Both the position numbers and the translations under genes were made by a program. From an uncultured Gammaproteobacteria bacterium (lineage in GTDB: Bacteria; Patescibacteriota; Patescibacteriia; Magasanikbacterales; GWA2-37-8), in assembly GCA_964496095.1 (NCBI GenBank), contig CAZBWU010000001.1:185474-249473 (forward strand): a stretch of 64,000 nucleotides of DNA, written 5' to 3'. Below, piece after piece: positions 10,345 to 56,235 of this stretch (position 1 is the first letter of the stretch; the number at the start of each line of letters is the position of its first letter). The notes under the pieces are model-generated. The model had not been told where the DNA came from and ran no database searches. It was given only the letters and a program-made list of their open reading frames with translations.

Positions 10345-10773
10345 TTAGGCGTCAAAATAATTTTTTCCAGTACGCAAAGCTTCTAAATATTGAGGCATGG
10401 TGCCGTATAAAGGACTTGGTAAGTTATTAAGATCATACCAATCCCAACCTTCACATTTGTTAGGTTCAAGGTTTTGTGATTCTCCGCTTTTCCAGTCGGC
10501 TAACAAGCCGATATTAATATAATGTTTGTCGTATTTTTTTAGATTATATAAACTTAAAAATCTTACGTTTTCTATTTCTATTCCAGCCTCTTCTCTAGTT
10601 TCTCTTTTGGCACACTCTTCCAATGATTCCATATATTCTACATGTCCACCCGGATTGGCGTATTCATTTTCGCCGTCGTTATTTGTATTTTTTCTTTTTC
10701 CAAGAAGAACTTTTCCATCCTTAAAAATCATAACACCAATACCAACTTTTGGGCGTTGATTTTCAGAGTCCAT
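10345..10773 (-). CDS. NUDIX hydrolase
   Basis: 142 aa; Nudix box GGHVEYMESLEECAKRETREEAGIEI. Confidence 0.85.
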   Translation of the reverse strand: MDSENQRPKVGIGVMIFKDGKVLLGKRKNTNNDGENEYANPGGHVEYMESLEECAKRETREEAGIEIENVRFLSLYNLKKYDKHYINIGLLADWKSGESQNLEPNKCEGWDWYDLNNLPSPLYGTMPQYLEALRTGKNYFDA

Positions 10774-38585: not shown

Positions 38586-39203
38586 TTATTTTCTCGGATA
38601 GAAAAACAAGACTAGACTAATAATGGCAGCGAAAAAGCACCAGACAGAAGTAAAATTAACAGCGTAGAAATACCAGGTGATAAGAGAAAAGACTAAGATG
38701 AGTAGAGAGTATAATTTTACTATTGGTTTGCTAGAGGCAGCTCCAGCGCCGATGGTGGCGAGGATATATAAGTATCCAAGTAGGTGAGGGTATGGAGCCA
38801 GGTCGGGATAGTACAAACAGCGATTAACAATTTCCGCAGATTCGGGATTGCGTAAAAAGCTGGCGTAGAAAATAGCTCCTACTACTGTACCTGCAATGCT
38901 GAAAAAAGTGATAATAGTTCGTCTAGCTTTGTGGGTTTCTAGTGACAAGGCTGCTAGTGGTAAATATGTGGGCCAAAAGAATAAGGCAAAGAAAAGAAAT
39001 ACATGAGTGAGCGGGAGGACATATTGCGGATAGCTTTTGAGAGATATCCAGAGCAGGCCTTCAACAAATTGTTGTAAGGCAAAAAATAAAGGCATGGCCA
39101 TCAACGGCCAAGCTTTTTTGTTTTGAGTTTTGATTAATCCGGCAGTACCGACAAGACCGAGAACTGTGCTAGCGGTAAAACTGGCAGTAGCAGAAAAACA
39201 CAT
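38586..39203 (-). CDS. Hypothetical integral membrane protein
   Basis: 205 aa, about 6 predicted TM helices. Confidence 0.5.
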   Translation of the reverse strand: MCFSATASFTASTVLGLVGTAGLIKTQNKKAWPLMAMPLFFALQQFVEGLLWISLKSYPQYVLPLTHVFLFFALFFWPTYLPLAALSLETHKARRTIITFFSIAGTVVGAIFYASFLRNPESAEIVNRCLYYPDLAPYPHLLGYLYILATIGAGAASSKPIVKLYSLLILVFSLITWYFYAVNFTSVWCFFAAIISLVLFFYPRK

Positions 39204-47782: not shown

Positions 47783-49804
47783 GTGAACGTCTCCGAACTA
47801 GCCAGACAACTCCGCATCCACCCGCAAAAGCTTTTGCAAATATTGCCTGAGTTTGGTTTTGATATTGGCGCCCGCGCGGTGAAAATCGATGATCGTGTGG
47901 CTCAGCAAATCCAACGTCAATGGAAGCGCATTAAGTTTGTCATGGAAGAAAGAGAGCAGAAAGAAAAGGAAAAGCAAAAAGAATTAGAAAAAGAAGCTCG
48001 CCAGAGTAGTGGGGTGACGGTTTCTATTGGCGACAAGATGACAGTGAGAGAATTGGCTGATTTGTTGCAAGTGCCAGTGACCAAGCTGATTATGGAATTC
48101 ATGAAAAACGGCATCTTGGCTACGCAAAATGAAAATGTAGATCATGATACTGCAGCACTAGTGGCGCAAGAAATGGGCTTTACTGTGGCCGAGGCTCATG
48201 CTGAAACCAAAGTTGAAGAATTTGATACTGCTCATGTAGAAAATCTCGAAAGTATTCTTACTAAAGATGCGACTACGGCTCGTCCGCCAGTGATTGTCGT
48301 AATGGGCCACGTTGATCATGGTAAAACAAAATTGTTGGACTCTATCCGTAATGCCAATGTGATGGGCGGAGAAGCTGGTGGTATCACTCAGCATATCGGT
48401 GCGTATCAAGTAATCTGGACAAATCCAAAAACCAAAGAAAAATCTCCTTTAACTTTTATTGATACTCCTGGTCACGAAGCTTTTTCAGTAATGCGTGGTC
48501 GTGGCGCCAAAGTAGCCGATATTGCGGTGCTTGTCGTTGCAGCTGATGATAGTGTGAAACCGCAAACAGTAGAAGCAATCAAGATTATTAAAGCCGTGAA
48601 GTTGCCGATTGTGGTCGCCATAAACAAAATTGATAAAGAAGGTGCTGATCCAAAAAAAGTTCGCGCTGATTTGTCTCAACATGATGTGCTGGTAGAAGAA
48701 TGGGGCGGGGATACGCCAGTGGTTGAAATTTCCGCTAAACAAAATCTTAATATTGATAAACTTTTGGATGTCTTGTTGCTTGTTGCTGATGTGCATGCGG
48801 GTGAAATTATGGCCAATCCAGACAGAGCGGCGGCTGGTACTGTGATCGAAGCCCACGTTGACAAAGGGGAAGGACCAGTGGCAACTGTCTTGGTACAAAC
48901 TGGTACACTCAAACTCAATGATCCGCTCGTGGTCAATGGTGAAATTTACGGCAAAGTGCGCGCCATGAAAAATTATAAGGGAGAAAATTTGTTAGTTGCG
49001 CCTCCAAGTTGTCCGGTGAGAATTCTTGGTTTTAAAGTCGCTCCGCAAGTCGGAGATATTTTGGATGTGGGTAGCGCGGCGGGGGCCAGTCTTATTAGTA
49101 TAAAAGAAAAGAAAAATATTCAATCTGGCGCGGAAAGAAAAGTTGTCTCTATGACGGCTGACCCAGAAGATGAAGAGCAGAAAAAAGTTTTGAATTTGGT
49201 TATTAAGGCTGATACTCTTGGGTCACTAGAAGCGATTATCGGGTCTTTGGAAAAAATAAAAAATGAAGAAGTGGGAGTGCGTATTATCGGCAAAGGTTTG
49301 GGTAATGTGATGGCTGATGATGTGGCCAAAGCTGAGACAGCTCACGCCATTGTTTGTGGGTTTAATGTGGTACCAGTACCGCTTGCCAAAAATATGATTC
49401 AAGATAAGAATATCCAATTTTTGCAGTTTAACGTAATTTATGATTTAATGGATTTTGTAAAAGTAGAACTTAAAAAACTTCTTAATCCGGAAAAAGTGGT
49501 TACTGAACTCGGTAGTATCCGTGTGGCCGCCATTTTCCGCACGGCCAAAGGTAGTATGATTATTGGTGGTCGCGTAGAATCAGGCAAGCTCAAAAAAGAC
49601 GCGCGCGTGCGAGTAAAAAGAGACAGAGAAGTAATTGGTCTGGGGAAAATCGGCCAATTGCAATCTGGCAAACAAATGGTTAATGAATTGCCTCAAGGTA
49701 ATGAAGGCGGTTTGCAGTTTGATGGAAAAATAAAACTGGAAGTTGGGGATGTTTTGGAAGCTTATACGGAAGAAGAGAAAGAGAAGAAGCTGATTTTGGA
49801 GTAA
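47783..49804 (+). CDS. infB: Translation initiation factor IF-2
   Basis: 673 aa from GTG start; GTPase motifs GHVDHGKT, DTPGH, NKID; IF-2 domain order. Confidence 0.92.
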   Translation: MNVSELARQLRIHPQKLLQILPEFGFDIGARAVKIDDRVAQQIQRQWKRIKFVMEEREQKEKEKQKELEKEARQSSGVTVSIGDKMTVRELADLLQVPVTKLIMEFMKNGILATQNENVDHDTAALVAQEMGFTVAEAHAETKVEEFDTAHVENLESILTKDATTARPPVIVVMGHVDHGKTKLLDSIRNANVMGGEAGGITQHIGAYQVIWTNPKTKEKSPLTFIDTPGHEAFSVMRGRGAKVADIAVLVVAADDSVKPQTVEAIKIIKAVKLPIVVAINKIDKEGADPKKVRADLSQHDVLVEEWGGDTPVVEISAKQNLNIDKLLDVLLLVADVHAGEIMANPDRAAAGTVIEAHVDKGEGPVATVLVQTGTLKLNDPLVVNGEIYGKVRAMKNYKGENLLVAPPSCPVRILGFKVAPQVGDILDVGSAAGASLISIKEKKNIQSGAERKVVSMTADPEDEEQKKVLNLVIKADTLGSLEAIIGSLEKIKNEEVGVRIIGKGLGNVMADDVAKAETAHAIVCGFNVVPVPLAKNMIQDKNIQFLQFNVIYDLMDFVKVELKKLLNPEKVVTELGSIRVAAIFRTAKGSMIIGGRVESGKLKKDARVRVKRDREVIGLGKIGQLQSGKQMVNELPQGNEGGLQFDGKIKLEVGDVLEAYTEEEKEKKLILE

Positions 49805-49814
49805 TTTTTTCGTC

Positions 49815-49922
49815 TGTCATTCCGAACCCTTATTTTTATGGGGTGAGGAATCTATTCCTATTAAATTATAAAATAATTCAGTATAGATCCCTCGTCGGCT
49901 ACGGCCTCGCTCGGGATGACAA
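49815..49922. repeat. TGTCAT-TIR element copy (intergenic infB-trxA)
   Basis: TGTCATTCCGAACCC...GAGGAATCTATTCC...GATCCCTCGTCGGCTACGGCCTCGCTCGGGATGACAA. Confidence 0.8.
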
Positions 49923-49959
49923 TTTTAATTATAAATTTTAATTCTTAACTCTATTTTGT

Positions 49960-50286
49960 ATGGAACACACATTTACCGACGCAAATTTTAATGAAGAAGT
50001 TTTGAAATCAAGCACCCCAGTGTTTGTCGATTTTTGGGCTCCTTGGTGTGGTCCTTGTCAGATTATGGGTCCGATTGTAGAAGAAATGGCCAAGACTTAT
50101 GAAGGCAAAAATATTAAAATCGGCAAATGTAATGTAGATGAGAATCCTGAGATTGCCGGCAAGTATAATATAATGAGCATTCCTTCGTTTTTGGTGTTCA
50201 AAAACGGCGAAGCGGTTGATCAGGTTGTTGGCGGTGTGCAAAAAGAAAAACTTACTGCTATGGTTGATAAACAGATTGCAGGATAA
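49960..50286 (+). CDS. trxA: Thioredoxin
   Basis: 108 aa; WAPWCGPCQ active site. Confidence 0.93.
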   Translation: MEHTFTDANFNEEVLKSSTPVFVDFWAPWCGPCQIMGPIVEEMAKTYEGKNIKIGKCNVDENPEIAGKYNIMSIPSFLVFKNGEAVDQVVGGVQKEKLTAMVDKQIAG

Positions 50287-50324
50287 AGGTGAGTGGTATA
50301 AGTTTAAAGTATATATTAAAGAAG

Positions 50325-50347
50325 ACAGGCGAAAGCCTGTTTTTTCT
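50325..50347 (+). terminator. Rho-independent terminator after trxA
   Basis: ACAGGCGAAAGCCTGT hairpin + TTTTTT. Confidence 0.7.
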
Positions 50348-50411
50348 TGATTATTTATGGAAAAGTAATTATACTAACATAACTACTCAATTTATTTAAG
50401 GCTTAGTTAGG

Positions 50412-50460
50412 TGTCATTCTGAACAGAGTGAAGAATCCCTCCACTACGGTCGGGATGACA
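50412..50460. repeat. Minimal (49-nt) TGTCAT-TIR element copy immediately 5' of leuS
   Basis: TGTCATTCTGAACAGAGTGAAGAATCCCTCCACTACGGTCGGGATGACA - both termini present. Confidence 0.8.
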
Positions 50461-50469
50461 AAAAAATCT

Positions 50470-53400
50470 ATGAAGAAATACGACCCAAAAAAAATAGAAG
50501 CAAAATGGCAAAAGTATTGGGAGAAAAATAAAACTTTTGAAGTTACGGAAGATCCAAAGCGTGAGAAGTTTTATGGTTTGATTGAGTTTCCTTATCCAAG
50601 TGGGGAAGGTTTGCACGTCGGGCATCCGCGTTCAAACACAGCGATGGATGTTATTTCCCGTAAGAAAAGAATGGAAGGAAAAAATGTTTTGTTCCCGATC
50701 GGGTTTGATGCGTTTGGATTACCAACTGAAAATTTTGCAATCAAAACAGGTAAGCCACCAGCCGAAGTGACCAAAAAAAATATTGCCAATTTTACTCGTC
50801 AGCTCAAAATGCTTGGTTTTAGTTTTGACTGGTCCAGGCAAGTTGACACTACCGATCCGCAATACTACAAATGGACTCAGTGGTTATTTTTGCAATTTTT
50901 CAAACACGGACTAGCTTATAAAAAAAATCAACCGATTAACTGGTGTCCGAAAGATAAAATTGGTTTGGCTAATGAAGAAGTTGTGGGCGGTTGTTGTGAG
51001 CGGTGTGGTACGCCGGTAGAAACAAAAAATAAAGAACAGTGGATGCTCGCTATTACCAAGTATGCTGACAAGCTTTTGGCAGGCCTAAAAGATGTAGATT
51101 ATATTGAGCGCGCTCGATTGCAACAAGAAAATTGGATTGGTAAAAGTGAAGGCGCCGAAGTTGTTTTTCCTTTGCGTGTGTCTGGACAAGTTGACGGCAA
51201 ATACACCGTAAAAGTTTTTACTACTCGTCCTGATACTATTTTTGGCGCAACTTTTATTGCTATCTCCGCCGACTTGGCCAAGGAGTGGGTTGGAGCTGGT
51301 TGGAGTCCAAGCGAAGAAATAAAAAATTATATTACTGAAGTTTTAAAAGTCCGCACTACGACCAACACTCGTGAAGAGCAAGAAAAAACTGGAGTCAGTG
51401 CTGGGGTAATGGCTATCAATCCAGTTTCAAAAGAAGAAATTCCAGTTTGGATTACCAATTATGTAATGGGTGGAGTAGGCACGGGTGCGATTATGGGAGT
51501 ACCAGCGCACGATGAACGCGATTTTGATTTTGCGAAGAAGTTTGGCTTGTCTGTTAAGCAAGTAGTAAAAAATCTAAATGAAAAACCAAAGTATTTAGTT
51601 TTTGATTTTGATGGGGTGATTGGGGATACGATTGAAGAGGGCGTTAAGGTAAATATGGCTCTTGATACAATTTCTGAAGAACAAGCAAGAAAAAATATAC
51701 ATGAGTATTTTAGCAGGAAGCCAAGCCATGCAAAGGGCCATACTTTGACTGATGATGAGTTAGAGAAGAGAGCTGATTGGATAAAAAGGTATGGTGAAAT
51801 AATGTTTAAATTAAACCCACCTCTGTTTGATGATTTTATTAAGGCTATAAAAAATATATCAAACATAAAGATTGCGGTAATTTCCGCCGGTTCAGGTTTG
51901 TATATCAAAAATCGTATGCCTGAGACTGATTTAAACCCGACTCATGTTTTGACATACGAAGACCACCATTCAAAGGAACAAAAAATCGAGCAGGTATGTA
52001 AGGATTGGGGAGTGTCTATGCAAGATGTATATTATTTTACTGATACCAAAGCGGATGTCTATGAACTAGAAAATTGCTTAGATAGAAAAAAAATTATTGG
52101 TTGTGCTTGGGGTTATTCCGGTTATGATGGTTTGCGTGAACTTTTGCCGGAAAATCAAGTGTTGAAAAATTTTACTGATATAAATAATCTGTTTACAGAT
52201 GGACCGTATACCGAAGATGGTGTAGCGGTTAATTCCGATTTTCTCAATGGTCTAAAAACAGATGAAGCTAAAATAAAAATGATAAGTTGGTTGGAAGAAA
52301 ATAAAATTGGTAAGAAACAAATAAATTATAAACTACGTGATTGGGTATTTTCTCGCCAGCGTTATTGGGGTGAGCCGATTCCACTTGTATATTGTGAAAA
52401 ATGTGCTGGCTGGATTCCGCTACCTGAGAGCGAACTACCTCTTAAACTTCCTAAAGTAGAAAAATATCAACCAACAGACAATGGCGAATCACCGCTCGCC
52501 GCCATGGAAAAATGGGTAAAGACAAAATGTCCGCAGTGTGGCGGTCCGGCCAGAAGAGAAACAGATACGATGCCAAATTGGGCAGGCTCTTCTTGGTATT
52601 TCTTGGCCTATGCTTTGGGTGGGGAAAAAGGTTTGAAAGAGAGAGGTGATAAGTTTTGGGATAAAGAATTATTAAAACAGTGGATGCCGATAGATTGGTA
52701 TAATGGGGGAATGGAACATACGGTTTTACACCTACTTTATTCTCGTTTTTGGAATATATTTTTGCATGATATTGGACTGGTGCCTACAAGTGAGCCGTAT
52801 AAAAAACGCACTTCCCACGGCATGATCTTGGCCAAAGGCGGAGAGAAGATGAGCAAGTCAAAAGGCAATGTGGTGAATCCCGATGAGATGGTAGAGCAGT
52901 TTGGCGCGGATGCCCTGCGTACCTATATTATGTTTATGGGTCCGTTTGATCAGGCAGTGGAGTGGGATACGAATGGGTTAATAGGAGTGAAACGATTTTT
53001 GGATAAGGTGTGGAATTATGCTATCGATAGATTACCTTCGGTTCCCAAGGAACGGAGGGATACAAGTGCCTTGACTAAGCTTCATCAAACAATTAAGAAA
53101 GTTAGTGAAGGTATTGATTCTATGAAATTCAATACCGCAATTGCATCGATGATGGAGTTTATGAATACTATTTATAAACCACTTGAAGATGGTAAGGTTG
53201 TTAGCGAGCCAGCGCCACTTATCGGTGAGCAAGATTTTATTAAGTTTTTAAAATTACTTTCTCCTTTTGCTCCACATATGTGTGAAGAAATTTGGAGTCA
53301 GCTTGGAAACAAAAACACTTTGGTCTTTGAACCTTGGCCAGAATACGATGAGGCCTTGACCAAAGAAAGTGAAATTACACTAGCTGTACAAGTAAATGGG

Positions 53401-53556
53401 AAATTGCGCGATACGATAACGGTACAGGCTGATATCTCGGAGGAAGAAGCAAAGAAAATAGTTTTGGCTAGTGAGAAAATTCAGAAGTGGTTGGAAGGCA
53501 AAGAACCCAAGAAAATTATTTACGTAAAAGGGAAGTTGGTGAGTATGGTTGTTTAA
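50470..53556 (+). CDS. leuS: Leucine--tRNA ligase with inserted HAD-like domain
   Basis: 1028 aa from ATG 50470 (MKKYDPKKIEAKWQKYW; ORF track start 50428 lies inside the repeat element); HIGH-region (PYPSGEGLHVGH), editing domain (TTRPDT), KMSKS; extra about 200-aa HAD-like segment between VPAHDERDFDFA and the NYKLRDW region. Confidence 0.9.
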   Translation: MKKYDPKKIEAKWQKYWEKNKTFEVTEDPKREKFYGLIEFPYPSGEGLHVGHPRSNTAMDVISRKKRMEGKNVLFPIGFDAFGLPTENFAIKTGKPPAEVTKKNIANFTRQLKMLGFSFDWSRQVDTTDPQYYKWTQWLFLQFFKHGLAYKKNQPINWCPKDKIGLANEEVVGGCCERCGTPVETKNKEQWMLAITKYADKLLAGLKDVDYIERARLQQENWIGKSEGAEVVFPLRVSGQVDGKYTVKVFTTRPDTIFGATFIAISADLAKEWVGAGWSPSEEIKNYITEVLKVRTTTNTREEQEKTGVSAGVMAINPVSKEEIPVWITNYVMGGVGTGAIMGVPAHDERDFDFAKKFGLSVKQVVKNLNEKPKYLVFDFDGVIGDTIEEGVKVNMALDTISEEQARKNIHEYFSRKPSHAKGHTLTDDELEKRADWIKRYGEIMFKLNPPLFDDFIKAIKNISNIKIAVISAGSGLYIKNRMPETDLNPTHVLTYEDHHSKEQKIEQVCKDWGVSMQDVYYFTDTKADVYELENCLDRKKIIGCAWGYSGYDGLRELLPENQVLKNFTDINNLFTDGPYTEDGVAVNSDFLNGLKTDEAKIKMISWLEENKIGKKQINYKLRDWVFSRQRYWGEPIPLVYCEKCAGWIPLPESELPLKLPKVEKYQPTDNGESPLAAMEKWVKTKCPQCGGPARRETDTMPNWAGSSWYFLAYALGGEKGLKERGDKFWDKELLKQWMPIDWYNGGMEHTVLHLLYSRFWNIFLHDIGLVPTSEPYKKRTSHGMILAKGGEKMSKSKGNVVNPDEMVEQFGADALRTYIMFMGPFDQAVEWDTNGLIGVKRFLDKVWNYAIDRLPSVPKERRDTSALTKLHQTIKKVSEGIDSMKFNTAIASMMEFMNTIYKPLEDGKVVSEPAPLIGEQDFIKFLKLLSPFAPHMCEEIWSQLGNKNTLVFEPWPEYDEALTKESEITLAVQVNGKLRDTITVQADISEEEAKKIVLASEKIQKWLEGKEPKKIIYVKGKLVSMVV

Positions 53557-53914
53557 ATTTATGAATTCTCTTAAGCAAATTTTAAAGCTTATATTAGTTG
53601 CTCTTGCTACTATTATATCAACCGTAGTCATTATGGTAGGCGGTATGTTTGGAATTACAAAATTTATGGCCTACCGTAATACCATGTATGCGGAACATTT
53701 TAATCAAGGGACTTTTGATTCTATCTTTGTAGGAATTTCTATGGATGATGTCCAAAAAATATTAGGACAACCTCTATCTATCTCCAAAAATGATGCTGGT
53801 TTTGAGTATCATTGGTATTCAAAACCTAAAAAAAGCAGTGATTATTATATAAAATTAATAATCTATCAAAATAATAGAGTGATTGACATGCAGGAGAAAT
53901 ATTATGTAGATTAG
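53549..53914 (+). CDS. Small hypothetical membrane protein
   Basis: 121 aa; N-terminal TM helix; 8-nt overlap with leuS end. Confidence 0.4.
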   Translation: MFKFMNSLKQILKLILVALATIISTVVIMVGGMFGITKFMAYRNTMYAEHFNQGTFDSIFVGISMDDVQKILGQPLSISKNDAGFEYHWYSKPKKSSDYYIKLIIYQNNRVIDMQEKYYVD

Positions 53915-53916
53915 TT

Positions 53917-55545
53917 ATGCTCAAGGAGGGGCTAGAACAAATCATCAAGAGCAAAAGTAAAACATTTCTCGCGTTTTGTTTTTGTTTTATTTTAGGCGCA
54001 GGTATTTTTTCTTTGTTTGAAGGCAAAGAATTTTTGTTTTATCTCCATATTTTATTATTTGCAATTTTGTTTTTTGTTATTATCTTCTGGTCAAAAAAAG
54101 AGTATCGGTTTTATTGTCTATGTCTGTTAGTTTTTGTGTTAGGTGGAATTAGATTTTTCCTGACAATTCCTGGGAAAGATGCAGATAGGATAGATTTTTA
54201 TAATGGTAGTAAAAAGATTATTAAAGGGTTTGTGGTGCGTGAACCGGATATTGGAGTAAGTGATGCGAGGTATGTGGTGCGGGTAGAAGCAATCGCTAAT
54301 CAGCCTGTCATTACGATGACGAAGGAGGAATCTCTGTCCAAATCAAAAATTAGACAGAGATCCCTCCGGGGCGTAAACCCCACTCAGGATGACAATCAGA
54401 GAGAGCGAGCCTCGGGAAATATTATGATTAAGACGTTAATTTATCCCGAATATAAATATGGCGATCAATTGGAAGTTAGTTGCCTTCTTCAAGAACCAAC
54501 AAATTTTGCAGATAGTGATTTCAATTATAAAAAATATCTAGCCAAACAAGATGTGTGGTCAACTTGTGCCAATCCGCAAATAAAAAAGGTGGGTGCAGGT
54601 AAAGGCAATTTTTTTATCAGTGCAATGTTGAAAATGAAAAGTAGAATAACTTTGCAGATGGCCAAACTTTGGCCTGAGCCAAGCAATAGTCTGATGGCCG
54701 GGATTTTATATGGCGCTCGCAGCGGTTTGCCCGATGATTTAACAACTAATTTTAGTCGTACGGGTGTGACTCATATTGTCGCTGTTTCCGGATATAATGT
54801 GAGTATCATAGTTGTAGTTTTAAATTCAATTTTAATTTATCTTGGATTATTTCGTAAACAATCTTTTTGGTCCTTAGTATTTTTGATTTTAGCCTTTGTC
54901 TTTTTCACTGGCGCTACCGCTTCGGTCGTGCGAGCGGGAATAATGGCGGTGATTGTTTTATTGTCTCAATATTTGGGTCGGCTATCGGCGGTGGGTAGGG
55001 TACTTGTCTATGCGGTTGTGGTGATGCTTATTTTTAATCCCTATCTGTTGATGTGGGATGCGGGCTTTCAGTTATCATTCCTGTCTACTTTGGGGTTGGT
55101 TTATTTGGTGCCTATTTTTGAGCCATTGACTGAAAAGATAAAAGTGACTGGTACTAGCGTGATGTTACTTGAAGTTTTTACGACCACGATGGCTGCGATT
55201 ATGGCTACTATGCCGTTAATTATGCATCAGTTTGGGAGGTTTTCGGTGGTGGCGCCTTTAGTAAATATTTTGGTTTTGTGGATTATTCCTTGGCTGATGT
55301 TGTTTGGGTTTTTGTCTTTGATTTTAAGCCTTGTATTTTTTCCGTTGGGTCAGCTGGTTGCCTGGGTGGCGGGTTTGGGAGTACGATATGTTATAATTGT
55401 TGTAGATTGGTTTGGAAATAAAAGTTGGAGTGCGGTTGATATGAAGATTTCTTTATTAACGATGATATTTATTTATCTCGTACTTATACTTTTTGTCACC
55501 AAAAAGTATCAAAAAGTGTTGGGGCGGCAGAACTCGCCTCATTAA
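53917..55545 (+). CDS. comEC: ComEC/Rec2 competence channel protein (membrane part; DUF4131 + competence domain)
   Basis: 542 aa; many TM helices; competence-domain signature region GILYGARSGLPDDL...TGVTHIVAVSGYNVSII; carries in-frame repeat-element insertion. Confidence 0.8.
   Translation: MLKEGLEQIIKSKSKTFLAFCFCFILGAGIFSLFEGKEFLFYLHILLFAILFFVIIFWSKKEYRFYCLCLLVFVLGGIRFFLTIPGKDADRIDFYNGSKKIIKGFVVREPDIGVSDARYVVRVEAIANQPVITMTKEESLSKSKIRQRSLRGVNPTQDDNQRERASGNIMIKTLIYPEYKYGDQLEVSCLLQEPTNFADSDFNYKKYLAKQDVWSTCANPQIKKVGAGKGNFFISAMLKMKSRITLQMAKLWPEPSNSLMAGILYGARSGLPDDLTTNFSRTGVTHIVAVSGYNVSIIVVVLNSILIYLGLFRKQSFWSLVFLILAFVFFTGATASVVRAGIMAVIVLLSQYLGRLSAVGRVLVYAVVVMLIFNPYLLMWDAGFQLSFLSTLGLVYLVPIFEPLTEKIKVTGTSVMLLEVFTTTMAAIMATMPLIMHQFGRFSVVAPLVNILVLWIIPWLMLFGFLSLILSLVFFPLGQLVAWVAGLGVRYVIIVVDWFGNKSWSAVDMKISLLTMIFIYLVLILFVTKKYQKVLGRQNSPH
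54306..54394. repeat. TGTCAT-TIR element copy, in-frame inside comEC
   Basis: TGTCATTACGATGACGAAGGAGGAATCTCTGTCC...GACAGAGATCCCTCCGGGGCGTAAACCCCACTCAGGATGACAA; encodes ...EESLSKSKIRQRSLRGVNPTQDDNQ... Confidence 0.8.
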
Positions 55546-55626: not shown

Positions 55627-56235
55627 ATGTCAAAAAAAATAAAAGTATTTTCTTCAGACCAGGGCTATGATTTGGCTGCGGAGTTTTATGATCAAAAAGA
55701 AAAGTACCTCAATAGTTTTGAGCAGAATAAAATTTTGCCACTGTTGGGAGATGTTAAGAATAAAAAAGTTTTGGATATTGGAGCGGGGACTGGTCGTCTG
55801 TCTTTGCAACTGGCAAAAGGCGGAGCGCAAGTAATGGCTTTGGATGTGTCGGAAAAAATGCTAGAGCTGGTTAAAAGAAAAAATCACAAGGTTCAAACAA
55901 CGGTAGCTGATGCCGAGAATTTACCTTTTGAAAATAATAGTTTTGATGTAGTGACCGCGGCTTTTTTGATTGTCCATCTCAAAGATCCAGCCAGATTTTT
56001 TGATGAAGTCTATAGAATTCTTAAAGACGGGGGAAAATTTGTAGTAACAAATATTAATCAAAAAGATCCTCCAGAAGTAAAAACCAAAGAGGGGAATATT
56101 ATTATTGAATCTTTTTATCATCGGCCAGAAAAAATAAAAGAGATCCTGGAGTCACTGGCTTTTCAAGTTGAACAAGAAATTTTTGTAAAAGAAAATGAGA
56201 TTTGGGTTAATCAAATTTTATTGGTAAGAAAGTAA
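55627..56235 (+). CDS. Class I SAM-dependent methyltransferase
   Basis: 202 aa; motif I VLDIGAGTGRLS, motif post-I LDVSEKM, acidic D at ADAENLPF. Confidence 0.8.
   Translation: MSKKIKVFSSDQGYDLAAEFYDQKEKYLNSFEQNKILPLLGDVKNKKVLDIGAGTGRLSLQLAKGGAQVMALDVSEKMLELVKRKNHKVQTTVADAENLPFENNSFDVVTAAFLIVHLKDPARFFDEVYRILKDGGKFVVTNINQKDPPEVKTKEGNIIIESFYHRPEKIKEILESLAFQVEQEIFVKENEIWVNQILLVRK

Follow-up and report, generated by a model that had tools for sequence, protein, structure and literature searches.

How does a leucyl-tRNA synthetase (LeuRS) come to carry a second enzyme within its proofreading domain, and what might that enzyme do there? The question is raised by a 64,000-nucleotide stretch of DNA from an ultra-small bacterium of the candidate phyla radiation (CPR; Patescibacteria), contig CAZBWU010000001.1, which is referred to as a whole as the window. 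Its leuS gene (50470..53556, + strand) codes for a LeuRS of 1028 residues counted from an ATG start codon. Residues 372-578 of this protein (51583..52203, +) make up a nested, C1-capped phosphohydrolase domain of HAD subfamily IA, 207 residues long, which is recognized by the Pfam model HAD_2, by a family hidden Markov model (HMM), in an AlphaFold2 (AF2) model, and by Foldseek. A HAD-like insertion had been noticed earlier in a reading of the bare sequence (the original prediction). Few proteins are as conserved as aminoacyl-tRNA synthetases, and extra domains in them usually point to new functions. We consider it probable that the domain is an autonomous, portable phosphatase module which rides on LeuRS as an exchangeable guest and is not a LeuRS-specific accessory.

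The HAD domain and its place in LeuRS

The motifs of the HAD superfamily are found in order on the + strand. Motif I, LVFDFDGVIGDT (aa 376-387, 51595..51630), carries the nucleophile D379 and the general acid/base D381, both invariant, and its segment FDFDGV (aa 378-383) conforms to the DxDx(T/V) pattern of subfamily IA. Motif II is IAVISAGSG with S472 (aa 468-476, 51871..51897). The motif III region, HHSKEQK with K502 (51964..51984), belongs to a family-specific EDHHSKE signature, and motif IV is YYFTDTKAD with D525 and D529 (aa 521-529, 52030..52056). Motifs I, II, and IV had been named in this order in the original prediction and stand as described there. The gathering threshold of Pfam HAD_2 is 23.8; the segment passes it with 38 bits within the whole protein and with 41 bits when excised. 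The family HMM covers the insert at positions 2-204 of 205 (E=1e-87), so that a whole gene is nested in leuS.

The residues D379, D381, T387, S472, K502, D525, and D529 are conserved to 100% in 33 LeuRS-inserted copies, which were drawn from NCBI, ENA, JGI, and Logan assemblies. In a further 120 members of the family, most of them free-standing, conservation of these residues is at least 99%, except for T387 (95%). The ratio dN/dS of the HAD domain is 0.08-0.12. The AF2 model of the domain, built with an 80-sequence alignment, reaches a pLDDT of 97 and a pTM of 0.93 and has an intact HAD fold. Its core is Rossmannoid; the cap, which lies between motifs I and II, is made of the helices that separate strand 1 from strand 2 (domain positions 16-89). 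In a model of the full-length protein, the HAD domain has a pLDDT of 92-98 compared to a mean of 82 for the whole model. The best 50 Foldseek matches in the PDB are all HAD-superfamily proteins, mostly of IA type, at a probability of 1.00, with 10-18% identity and TM scores of at most 0.72. Most of them are uncharacterized proteins; AlnB and the pyrophosphatase BT2127 are among those with a name. A single-sequence phmmer search of the insert against the PDB found nothing. The helical C1 cap indicates a small-molecule substrate.

Judged from motif conservation and a dN/dS of about 0.1, the domain appears to be a complete and active HAD-IA phosphohydrolase with a predicted Mg2+-dependent activity. 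The original prediction had left room for a degenerate, non-catalytic domain, a structural element or spacer which merely enlarges the editing domain. Some enzyme domains inserted in synthetases have indeed lost activity. Here, none of the four HAD motifs is damaged or varies among the inserted copies, and their conservation matches that of free-standing members. We reject a degenerate spacer as very improbable because the catalytic residues are conserved and dN/dS is low. An antisense open reading frame (ORF) of 149 aa (51459-51908, -) lies inside the HAD-coding region. It is most likely spurious, a product of the AT-rich sequence, because it is the sense strand which is under purifying selection.

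The position of the insert follows from the alignment to LeuRS from T. thermophilus (1h3n): residues 1-371 correspond to residues 1-367 of that protein and residues 579-802 to its residues 376-593. Residues 372-578 are thus extra and replace about 8 residues. The region 51551-52200, given for the domain in the original prediction, was essentially right and is refined to 51583-52203. Its placement behind the editing domain was not: the Pfam editing-domain model PF13603, which scores 183 bits on this LeuRS, is split at profile position ~150 of 185, and about 45 editing-domain residues follow the insert. The insert occupies, in frame, a surface loop of the CP1 editing domain, between the conserved segments ..VKQVV and ..YTEDGVAVNS.

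LeuRS around the insert is readily traced. With 968 bits against TIGR00396 (leuS_bact; curated cut-off 548) it is assigned as a bacterial leucine--tRNA ligase. The N-terminal catalytic half together with the first ~145 residues of the CP1 editing domain (aa 1-371, 50470..51582) contains HVGH, the HIGH signature (aa 49-52, 50614-50625), the threonine-rich editing motif TTRPDT (aa 251-256, 51220-51237), and VPAHDERD, the region of the conserved editing Asp (aa 344-351, 51499-51522), so that both hallmarks of editing are intact. Behind the insert, the remainder of the editing domain (aa 579-625, 52204..52344) resumes at T. thermophilus residue 376 and ends at NYKLRDW (aa 619-625). The C-terminal catalytic half, the anticodon-binding domain (Pfam Anticodon_1), and the C-terminal domain follow (52345..53556), with the class I signature KMSKS at aa 793-797 (52846-52860). 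All of these features are on the + strand. The HAD domain is an addition and not a replacement, as originally proposed, since the TIGR00396 score and the HIGH, KMSKS, TTRPDT, and VPAHDERD motifs are all retained.

Compared to bacterial LeuRS with CP1 editing (T. thermophilus 1h3n, E. coli 4aq7), the protein is colinear outside the insert (E=2e-209) and shares their signatures. It differs from them in having a HAD domain of 207 residues in place of an 8-residue loop and in lacking the leucine-specific domain: residue 793 pairs with T. thermophilus residue 637, and residues ~594-636 of the latter have no counterpart. Among 17 solved LeuRS sequences with a match at E<=1e-50, not one carries a domain where the insert lies. 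From its sequence, this LeuRS looks fully functional and is otherwise of the ordinary bacterial type, from CPR/Patescibacteria; the closest relatives that bear a name are Candidatus Magasanikbacteria.

Exchange of the cassette

The HAD domain and its flanks differ in history, as the comparison with the closest relative, protein P0122, indicates. Amino acid identity is 100% for aa 1-225 and 98% for aa 226-371, falls to 67% for the HAD domain (aa 372-578), returns to 97% for aa 579-640 and 96% for aa 641-800, and is 74% for aa 801-1028. On the nucleotide level, identity to the closest relative is 93-99% at 50049-51548 (with a single 150-nt interval at 88%), 59-81% at 51549-52145, and 91-93% at 52146-52745. 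Synonymous divergence (dS) is 1.87 in the HAD domain and 0.26 and 0.44 in the flanks. This excess points to a separate history of the HAD domain, by recombination, and not to faster protein evolution. The HAD domain nearest to that of the window (84% identity) is found in a different protein, P0124.

A second divergent island is seen at 52896-53309 (LeuRS aa ~810-947, in the anticodon-binding region) upon comparison with the closest relative, locus L040. Nucleotide identity is 48-71% with indels, amino acid identity is 74%, and dS is 0.77, so that the mosaic structure of leuS is not confined to the HAD cassette. To the same locus, the N-terminal half of leuS has a nucleotide identity of 93-99% (88% in a single 150-nt interval), compared to only 84-92% for infB, comEC, and other neighbours. 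This contrast suggests recent recombination between lineages within leuS itself.

Mosaic identity can also arise from chimeric assembly, and the genome is of metagenome type. We regard an artefact (a chimeric contig, or two genes merged in gene calling) as a negligible risk. The ORF list has leuS as a single uninterrupted frame (50428-53556), which with the in-frame upstream GTG at 50428 would code for 1042 aa. From the ATG at 50470, the protein has the 1028 aa given in the original prediction and is identical to the database protein P0121, which is recorded on a 457-kb NCBI genome contig. The same 1028-aa protein is encoded on Logan contigs of two separate sequencing runs (SRR10036082 and SRR10036080). 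In addition, the 33 inserted copies come from four sources of assemblies, and both junctions are in frame at conserved boundaries.

An exchange of the entire cassette is seen in a pair of loci from a sister lineage (L037 and L038), which have the same synteny (truB-infB-trx-leuS-comEC-methyltransferase). They are 99.3% identical across 5.1 kb, up to leuS codon 365. At this point, one continues with a HAD domain of 651 nt, the other with a NUDIX domain of 468 nt. Beyond the cassette, 317 nt with 89% identity are followed by a Ser_hydrolase insert which has equal length in both loci and a completely different nucleotide sequence; thereafter, identity is back to 98% up to the end. The HAD and NUDIX cassettes of this pair share their boundaries (..RQVV before and FTEDGVSVNS.. 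after the cassette), and the in-frame junctions VV and FTE-G are common to HAD and NUDIX variants. One of the two loci differs further downstream: L038 has a gene for a 211-aa protein with metallo-beta-lactamase fold between leuS and comEC (L038:7455-8090), which is absent from L037 and has a faint match to the Anti-Pycsar protein Apyc1.

Such behaviour resembles that of inteins, which likewise lodge in frame in conserved essential genes, have a patchy distribution among close relatives, and have a history unlike that of the host gene. Inteins are spliced out, however, whereas the window cassette has neither a Hint/splicing domain nor a homing endonuclease, and the enzyme stays in the mature protein. 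Pfam models for Hint, LAGLIDADG, and HNH have no match on the whole LeuRS, nor was a transposase or recombinase signature found; no Rfam family and no intron-like RNA was detected within 49800-54000, and the cassette boundaries carry no repeats beyond chance.

The cassettes might nevertheless be selfish or conflict elements: passengers without splicing, retained since an imprecise loss would kill the cell, and disseminated through homologous recombination; or else rapidly exchanged counter-measures against toxins or phage signals which hit translation or nucleotide pools. The polymorphism in presence and type among near-identical strains with sharp boundaries would fit, as would the history distinct from the flanks, the slightly lower GC content of the cassette overall and at third codon positions (0.348/0.295 vs ~0.41/0.35), the restriction to very conserved essential host genes, and the elevated identity of the N-terminal half of leuS relative to neighbouring genes. 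Apart from the missing signatures of mobility, the strictly conserved catalytic residues and the dN/dS of about 0.1 speak against this, as they suggest that the enzyme activity itself is selected. Moreover, the same HAD occurs as a stand-alone gene in a stable syntenic operon in Paceibacteria (see below). We therefore judge a selfish or conflict origin to be quite improbable.

Guest domains in LeuRS and in other essential enzymes

The closest matches to the excised insert are stand-alone HAD proteins of ~205 aa from Parcubacteria-type CPR, with 40-53% identity, together with HAD-NUDIX fusions of ~375 aa. The identity extends over the full length, and motifs and the EDHHSKE signature are shared. 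The stand-alone proteins are annotated as 'HAD hydrolase-like protein', 'FMN phosphatase YigB', or 'phosphoglycolate phosphatase-like', and match Pfam HAD_2; none has been characterized biochemically. They differ from the copy in the window in being encoded by free-standing genes, often in a NUDIX-HAD-leuS cluster, whereas the window copy is nested in leuS. In a Kaiserbacteria locus (L004), the stand-alone HAD gene is located 71 bp upstream of leuS on the same strand. Locus L029 has, all on one strand, NUDIX, a gap of 12 bp, HAD, a gap of 65 bp, and leuS. In the Nomurabacteria loci L030 and L031, HAD is followed at a distance of ~1 kb by leuS; the interval holds one to two genes, namely a small ORF with or without NUDIX. 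In L034, HAD precedes leuS by 70 bp, and that leuS itself holds a nested NUDIX domain. In Paceibacteria, the stand-alone HAD gene belongs to a NUDIX-HAD-leuS cluster. As these loci share synteny, they are not independent observations.

At other loci, the neighbourhood is different. A stand-alone HAD of the family overlaps by 4 bp with a gene for a 344-aa HisRS catalytic core (L001:4970-6618). This core matches TIGR00442 with 295 bits at model positions 2-317 of 406 and thus is devoid of the anticodon-binding domain. Another locus has an overlapping NUDIX-HAD pair near GlyRS. A scan of genome contigs with the pattern IFDFDGV[IL] returned at least 22 loci, with about 6 true family members among the matches listed. 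In the 64-kb window, no second HAD of the family was found; a 205-aa ORF at 38586-39203 was considered and rejected, as it is DUF6629. The window does have a stand-alone gene for a 142-aa NUDIX hydrolase (10345-10773, -), 40 kb from leuS. It matches an HMM built from the NUDIX domains which partner with HAD (E=6e-16) and no NCBIfam equivalog; the NUDIX partner domains likewise matched no NUDIX equivalog in NCBIfam. In a neighbour-joining tree without support values, inserted HAD domains fall into several clades which are interleaved with stand-alone HADs, and this suggests several independent insertions.

The original prediction stated that no LeuS-HAD fusion was known to have been described, and this was borne out by literature searches. 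The architecture is not rare, though: dozens of homologues share it, and it is common among public CPR metagenome proteins. The 119 closest LeuRS clusters were sorted by inserted domain with purpose-built HMMs for four domain types. None of the four is present in 35 of the clusters. NUDIX alone was found in 28, HAD alone in 13, and Ser_hydrolase alone in 9; HAD is combined with Ser_hydrolase in 12, NUDIX with Ser_hydrolase in 10, and NUDIX with HAD in 5. The remaining 7 clusters have other combinations, some of them with a domain of ~185 aa of unknown type. The latter recurs at one LeuRS site, after ..WAGSSWYFLRY, in P0166, P0199, P0219, P0231, and P0236; it has no significant Pfam match (weak similarity to NTP_transf_5, E=0.006).

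Numbered on a minimal LeuRS of 769 aa (P0155), there are at least six insert positions: ~238-247, 360-374, ~406, 451-454, 480-495, and the point where the anticodon-binding domain begins. The insert in the window is located at 360-374, and the HAD family is present at five or more different LeuRS positions. Domain architectures are intermixed in a neighbour-joining tree of the LeuRS core. In one relative (P0210), the editing-domain site used in the window is occupied by a methyltransferase domain, as identified by Pfam. A Methyltransf_11 gene is located two genes downstream of leuS in the window (55627-56235, +), and this synteny is kept in L037, L038, and L040. Taken together, the two observations hint that adjoining genes may be captured as inserts.

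The same HAD family was encountered in other host enzymes when 1.84 billion representatives were searched with HMMER (108 matches at E<=1e-30). Many of the 48 newly returned matches with at least 300 aa are non-LeuRS hosts. They comprise several EngA/Der GTPases, some with two HAD copies, ValRS proteins, one of which also carries Ham1/ITPase, PNPase, a class II enzyme of AspRS/LysRS type, AlaRS, a fragment of ThrRS/AlaRS type, and CTP synthase. Motifs I and IV are kept in most of these hosts. The EngA/Der homologues P0243 (1092 aa) and P0245 (1157 aa) have two family copies each, and P0243 matches the generic Pfam model Hydrolase (HAD) at a further place apart from these; all are nested between and within the two G domains. 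On an 8.6 kb contig (L036:1506-6980; ENA ERZ27248453), ValRS appears to be split into a middle piece of 212 aa and a C-terminal piece of 432 aa, encoded by separate ORFs. The ORFs in between code for Ham1/ITPase, for a HAD-NUDIX fusion, for another HAD, and for an unrelated protein of 368 aa; NDK is encoded nearby. One of the LeuRS insertion sites is homologous to the point at which ValRS is split. What the hosts have in common is strong conservation, essentiality, and nucleotide use. This breadth of host enzymes argues against a mechanism that is specific to leucine charging.

A direct coupling to aminoacylation had been raised in the original prediction. In this scenario, the HAD domain clears pyrophosphate (PPi), AMP, or, jointly with NUDIX, Ap4A-type dinucleotides beside the synthetase, whereby amino acid activation would be pulled forward or inhibitory nucleotides would be removed. 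The scenario gains from the stand-alone HAD gene being immediately upstream of leuS, elsewhere overlapping a HisRS-core gene or being near GlyRS, and from the many synthetases among the nested hosts (LeuRS, ValRS, AlaRS, AspRS-type). The structural match to the pyrophosphatase BT2127 (TM ~0.62-0.67) and the theme of NUDIX plus phosphatase in an SR1 IleRS (PMC3812714) point the same way. Nevertheless, EngA, PNPase, and CTP synthase are hosts as well, and none of them releases PPi or AMP. With at least five LeuRS loops in use, the domain has no fixed geometry to the active sites. Furthermore, HAD and NUDIX interchange in backgrounds that are ~99% identical, more than a quarter of the closest LeuRS relatives (35/119) do without any of the four domain types, and BT2127 is only 12-14% identical and not the top match. 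On balance, a LeuRS-specific coupling seems unlikely.

Function, precedents, and meaning

Under the reading we prefer, a guest phosphatase that is portable between hosts, a stand-alone HAD gene of ~205 aa has been nested as a whole and in frame in an editing-domain loop of leuS. Recombination through the conserved flanks of the host gene would account for gain, loss, and exchange of the cassette. The HAD domain would be a phosphomonoesterase which depends on Mg2+ and works autonomously, linked to LeuRS simply by tethering and joint expression; LeuRS would still charge and edit normally beside it. Several points weigh against this view. The majority of hosts belong to the aminoacyl-tRNA synthetases, and leuS is linked to the stand-alone gene, so that a tie of the family to synthetase chemistry is conceivable. 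A search against PDB sequences gave a single weak match of the family profile, 3mc1 with E=0.0013, and no close characterized homologue was found. NCBIfam places the domain in no HAD subfamily above its cut-off. The trees are neighbour-joining trees without support values.

Because NCBIfam gives no HAD subfamily, any substrate is a guess. The nucleotide link is provided by the partner domains NUDIX and Ham1/ITPase and by NDK nearby. A nucleotide-derived phosphomonoester appears to be the most plausible substrate in view of these partners, the SR1 IleRS case, and the nucleotide-using hosts. We tentatively suggest, for example, a nucleoside monophosphate or a phosphomonoester product of the NUDIX/Ham1 partners, although the odds are somewhat against the substrate being derived from nucleotides.

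BT2127, the inorganic pyrophosphatase from Bacteroides thetaiotaomicron (3qu5, 3qxg), has the same HAD-IA core and C1 cap (TM 0.62-0.67), and its chemistry would be plausible for the partner of a synthetase. It first appears at Foldseek rank 19, has 12-14% identity, and was not detected with the sequence profile against the PDB. Membership in a BT2127 type was considered and is unsupported, since identity is this low, other structures match better, and common specificity residues are not established. Detoxification of Trojan-horse inhibitors that target LeuRS was dropped as a main hypothesis, as there was no supporting evidence.

The sole precedent which emerged from full-text literature searches is a one-sentence remark that an SR1 IleRS is interrupted by NUDIX and two phosphoglycerate-mutase domains, which have a phosphatase fold (Kantor et al., 2013, mBio; PMC3812714). 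Apart from this remark, the searches turned up no description of the LeuRS-HAD architecture or of the cassette behaviour. The SR1 protein is similar in being a class Ia synthetase from CPR with in-frame small-molecule hydrolase domains (NUDIX plus a phosphatase type); it differs in being another synthetase with a histidine phosphatase fold instead of HAD, and distribution, exchange, and function are not analyzed in that paper. A survey of domain insertions from 2026 treats the LeuRS editing domain as an insert only and never as a host. The NCBIfam model for IleRS with a GNAT domain (NF040702) scores 60.5 bits on the window protein, far below its cut-off of 1999. Synthetases with accreted domains are known, and it is the aspect of the exchangeable cassette which is possibly new.

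More speculative is an extension to CPR in general, which we put forward with considerable reservation. Small enzyme genes such as HAD, NUDIX, Ser-hydrolase, and their relatives could form a pool of exchangeable in-frame cassettes, for which conserved essential genes (LeuRS, ValRS, AlaRS, EngA, PNPase, CTP synthase) serve as landing pads. The flanks of the host gene would supply the homology for uptake and recombination between diverged lineages that are naturally competent and poor in mobile elements. If true, this would be a previously unrecognized way in which accessory genes move and in which essential proteins vary from strain to strain.

For the biology of these organisms, a complete second enzyme inside the proofreading domain of an essential synthetase, swapped between strains with ~99% identical flanks, has several implications. 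LeuRS and other CPR marker genes are mosaics, by which phylogenomics is affected, and annotation is often wrong, with database names for these proteins ranging from 'leucine--tRNA ligase' and 'hypothetical protein' to even 'alpha/beta fold hydrolase'. If confirmed, the finding would suggest a route of horizontal transfer which does not need any mobile-element machinery and would offer a handle on a CPR phosphatase family which is widespread yet uncharacterized, and on the NUDIX enzyme that partners with it. It would also mean that essential proteins of CPR bacteria tolerate, and may exploit, modular guest enzymes.

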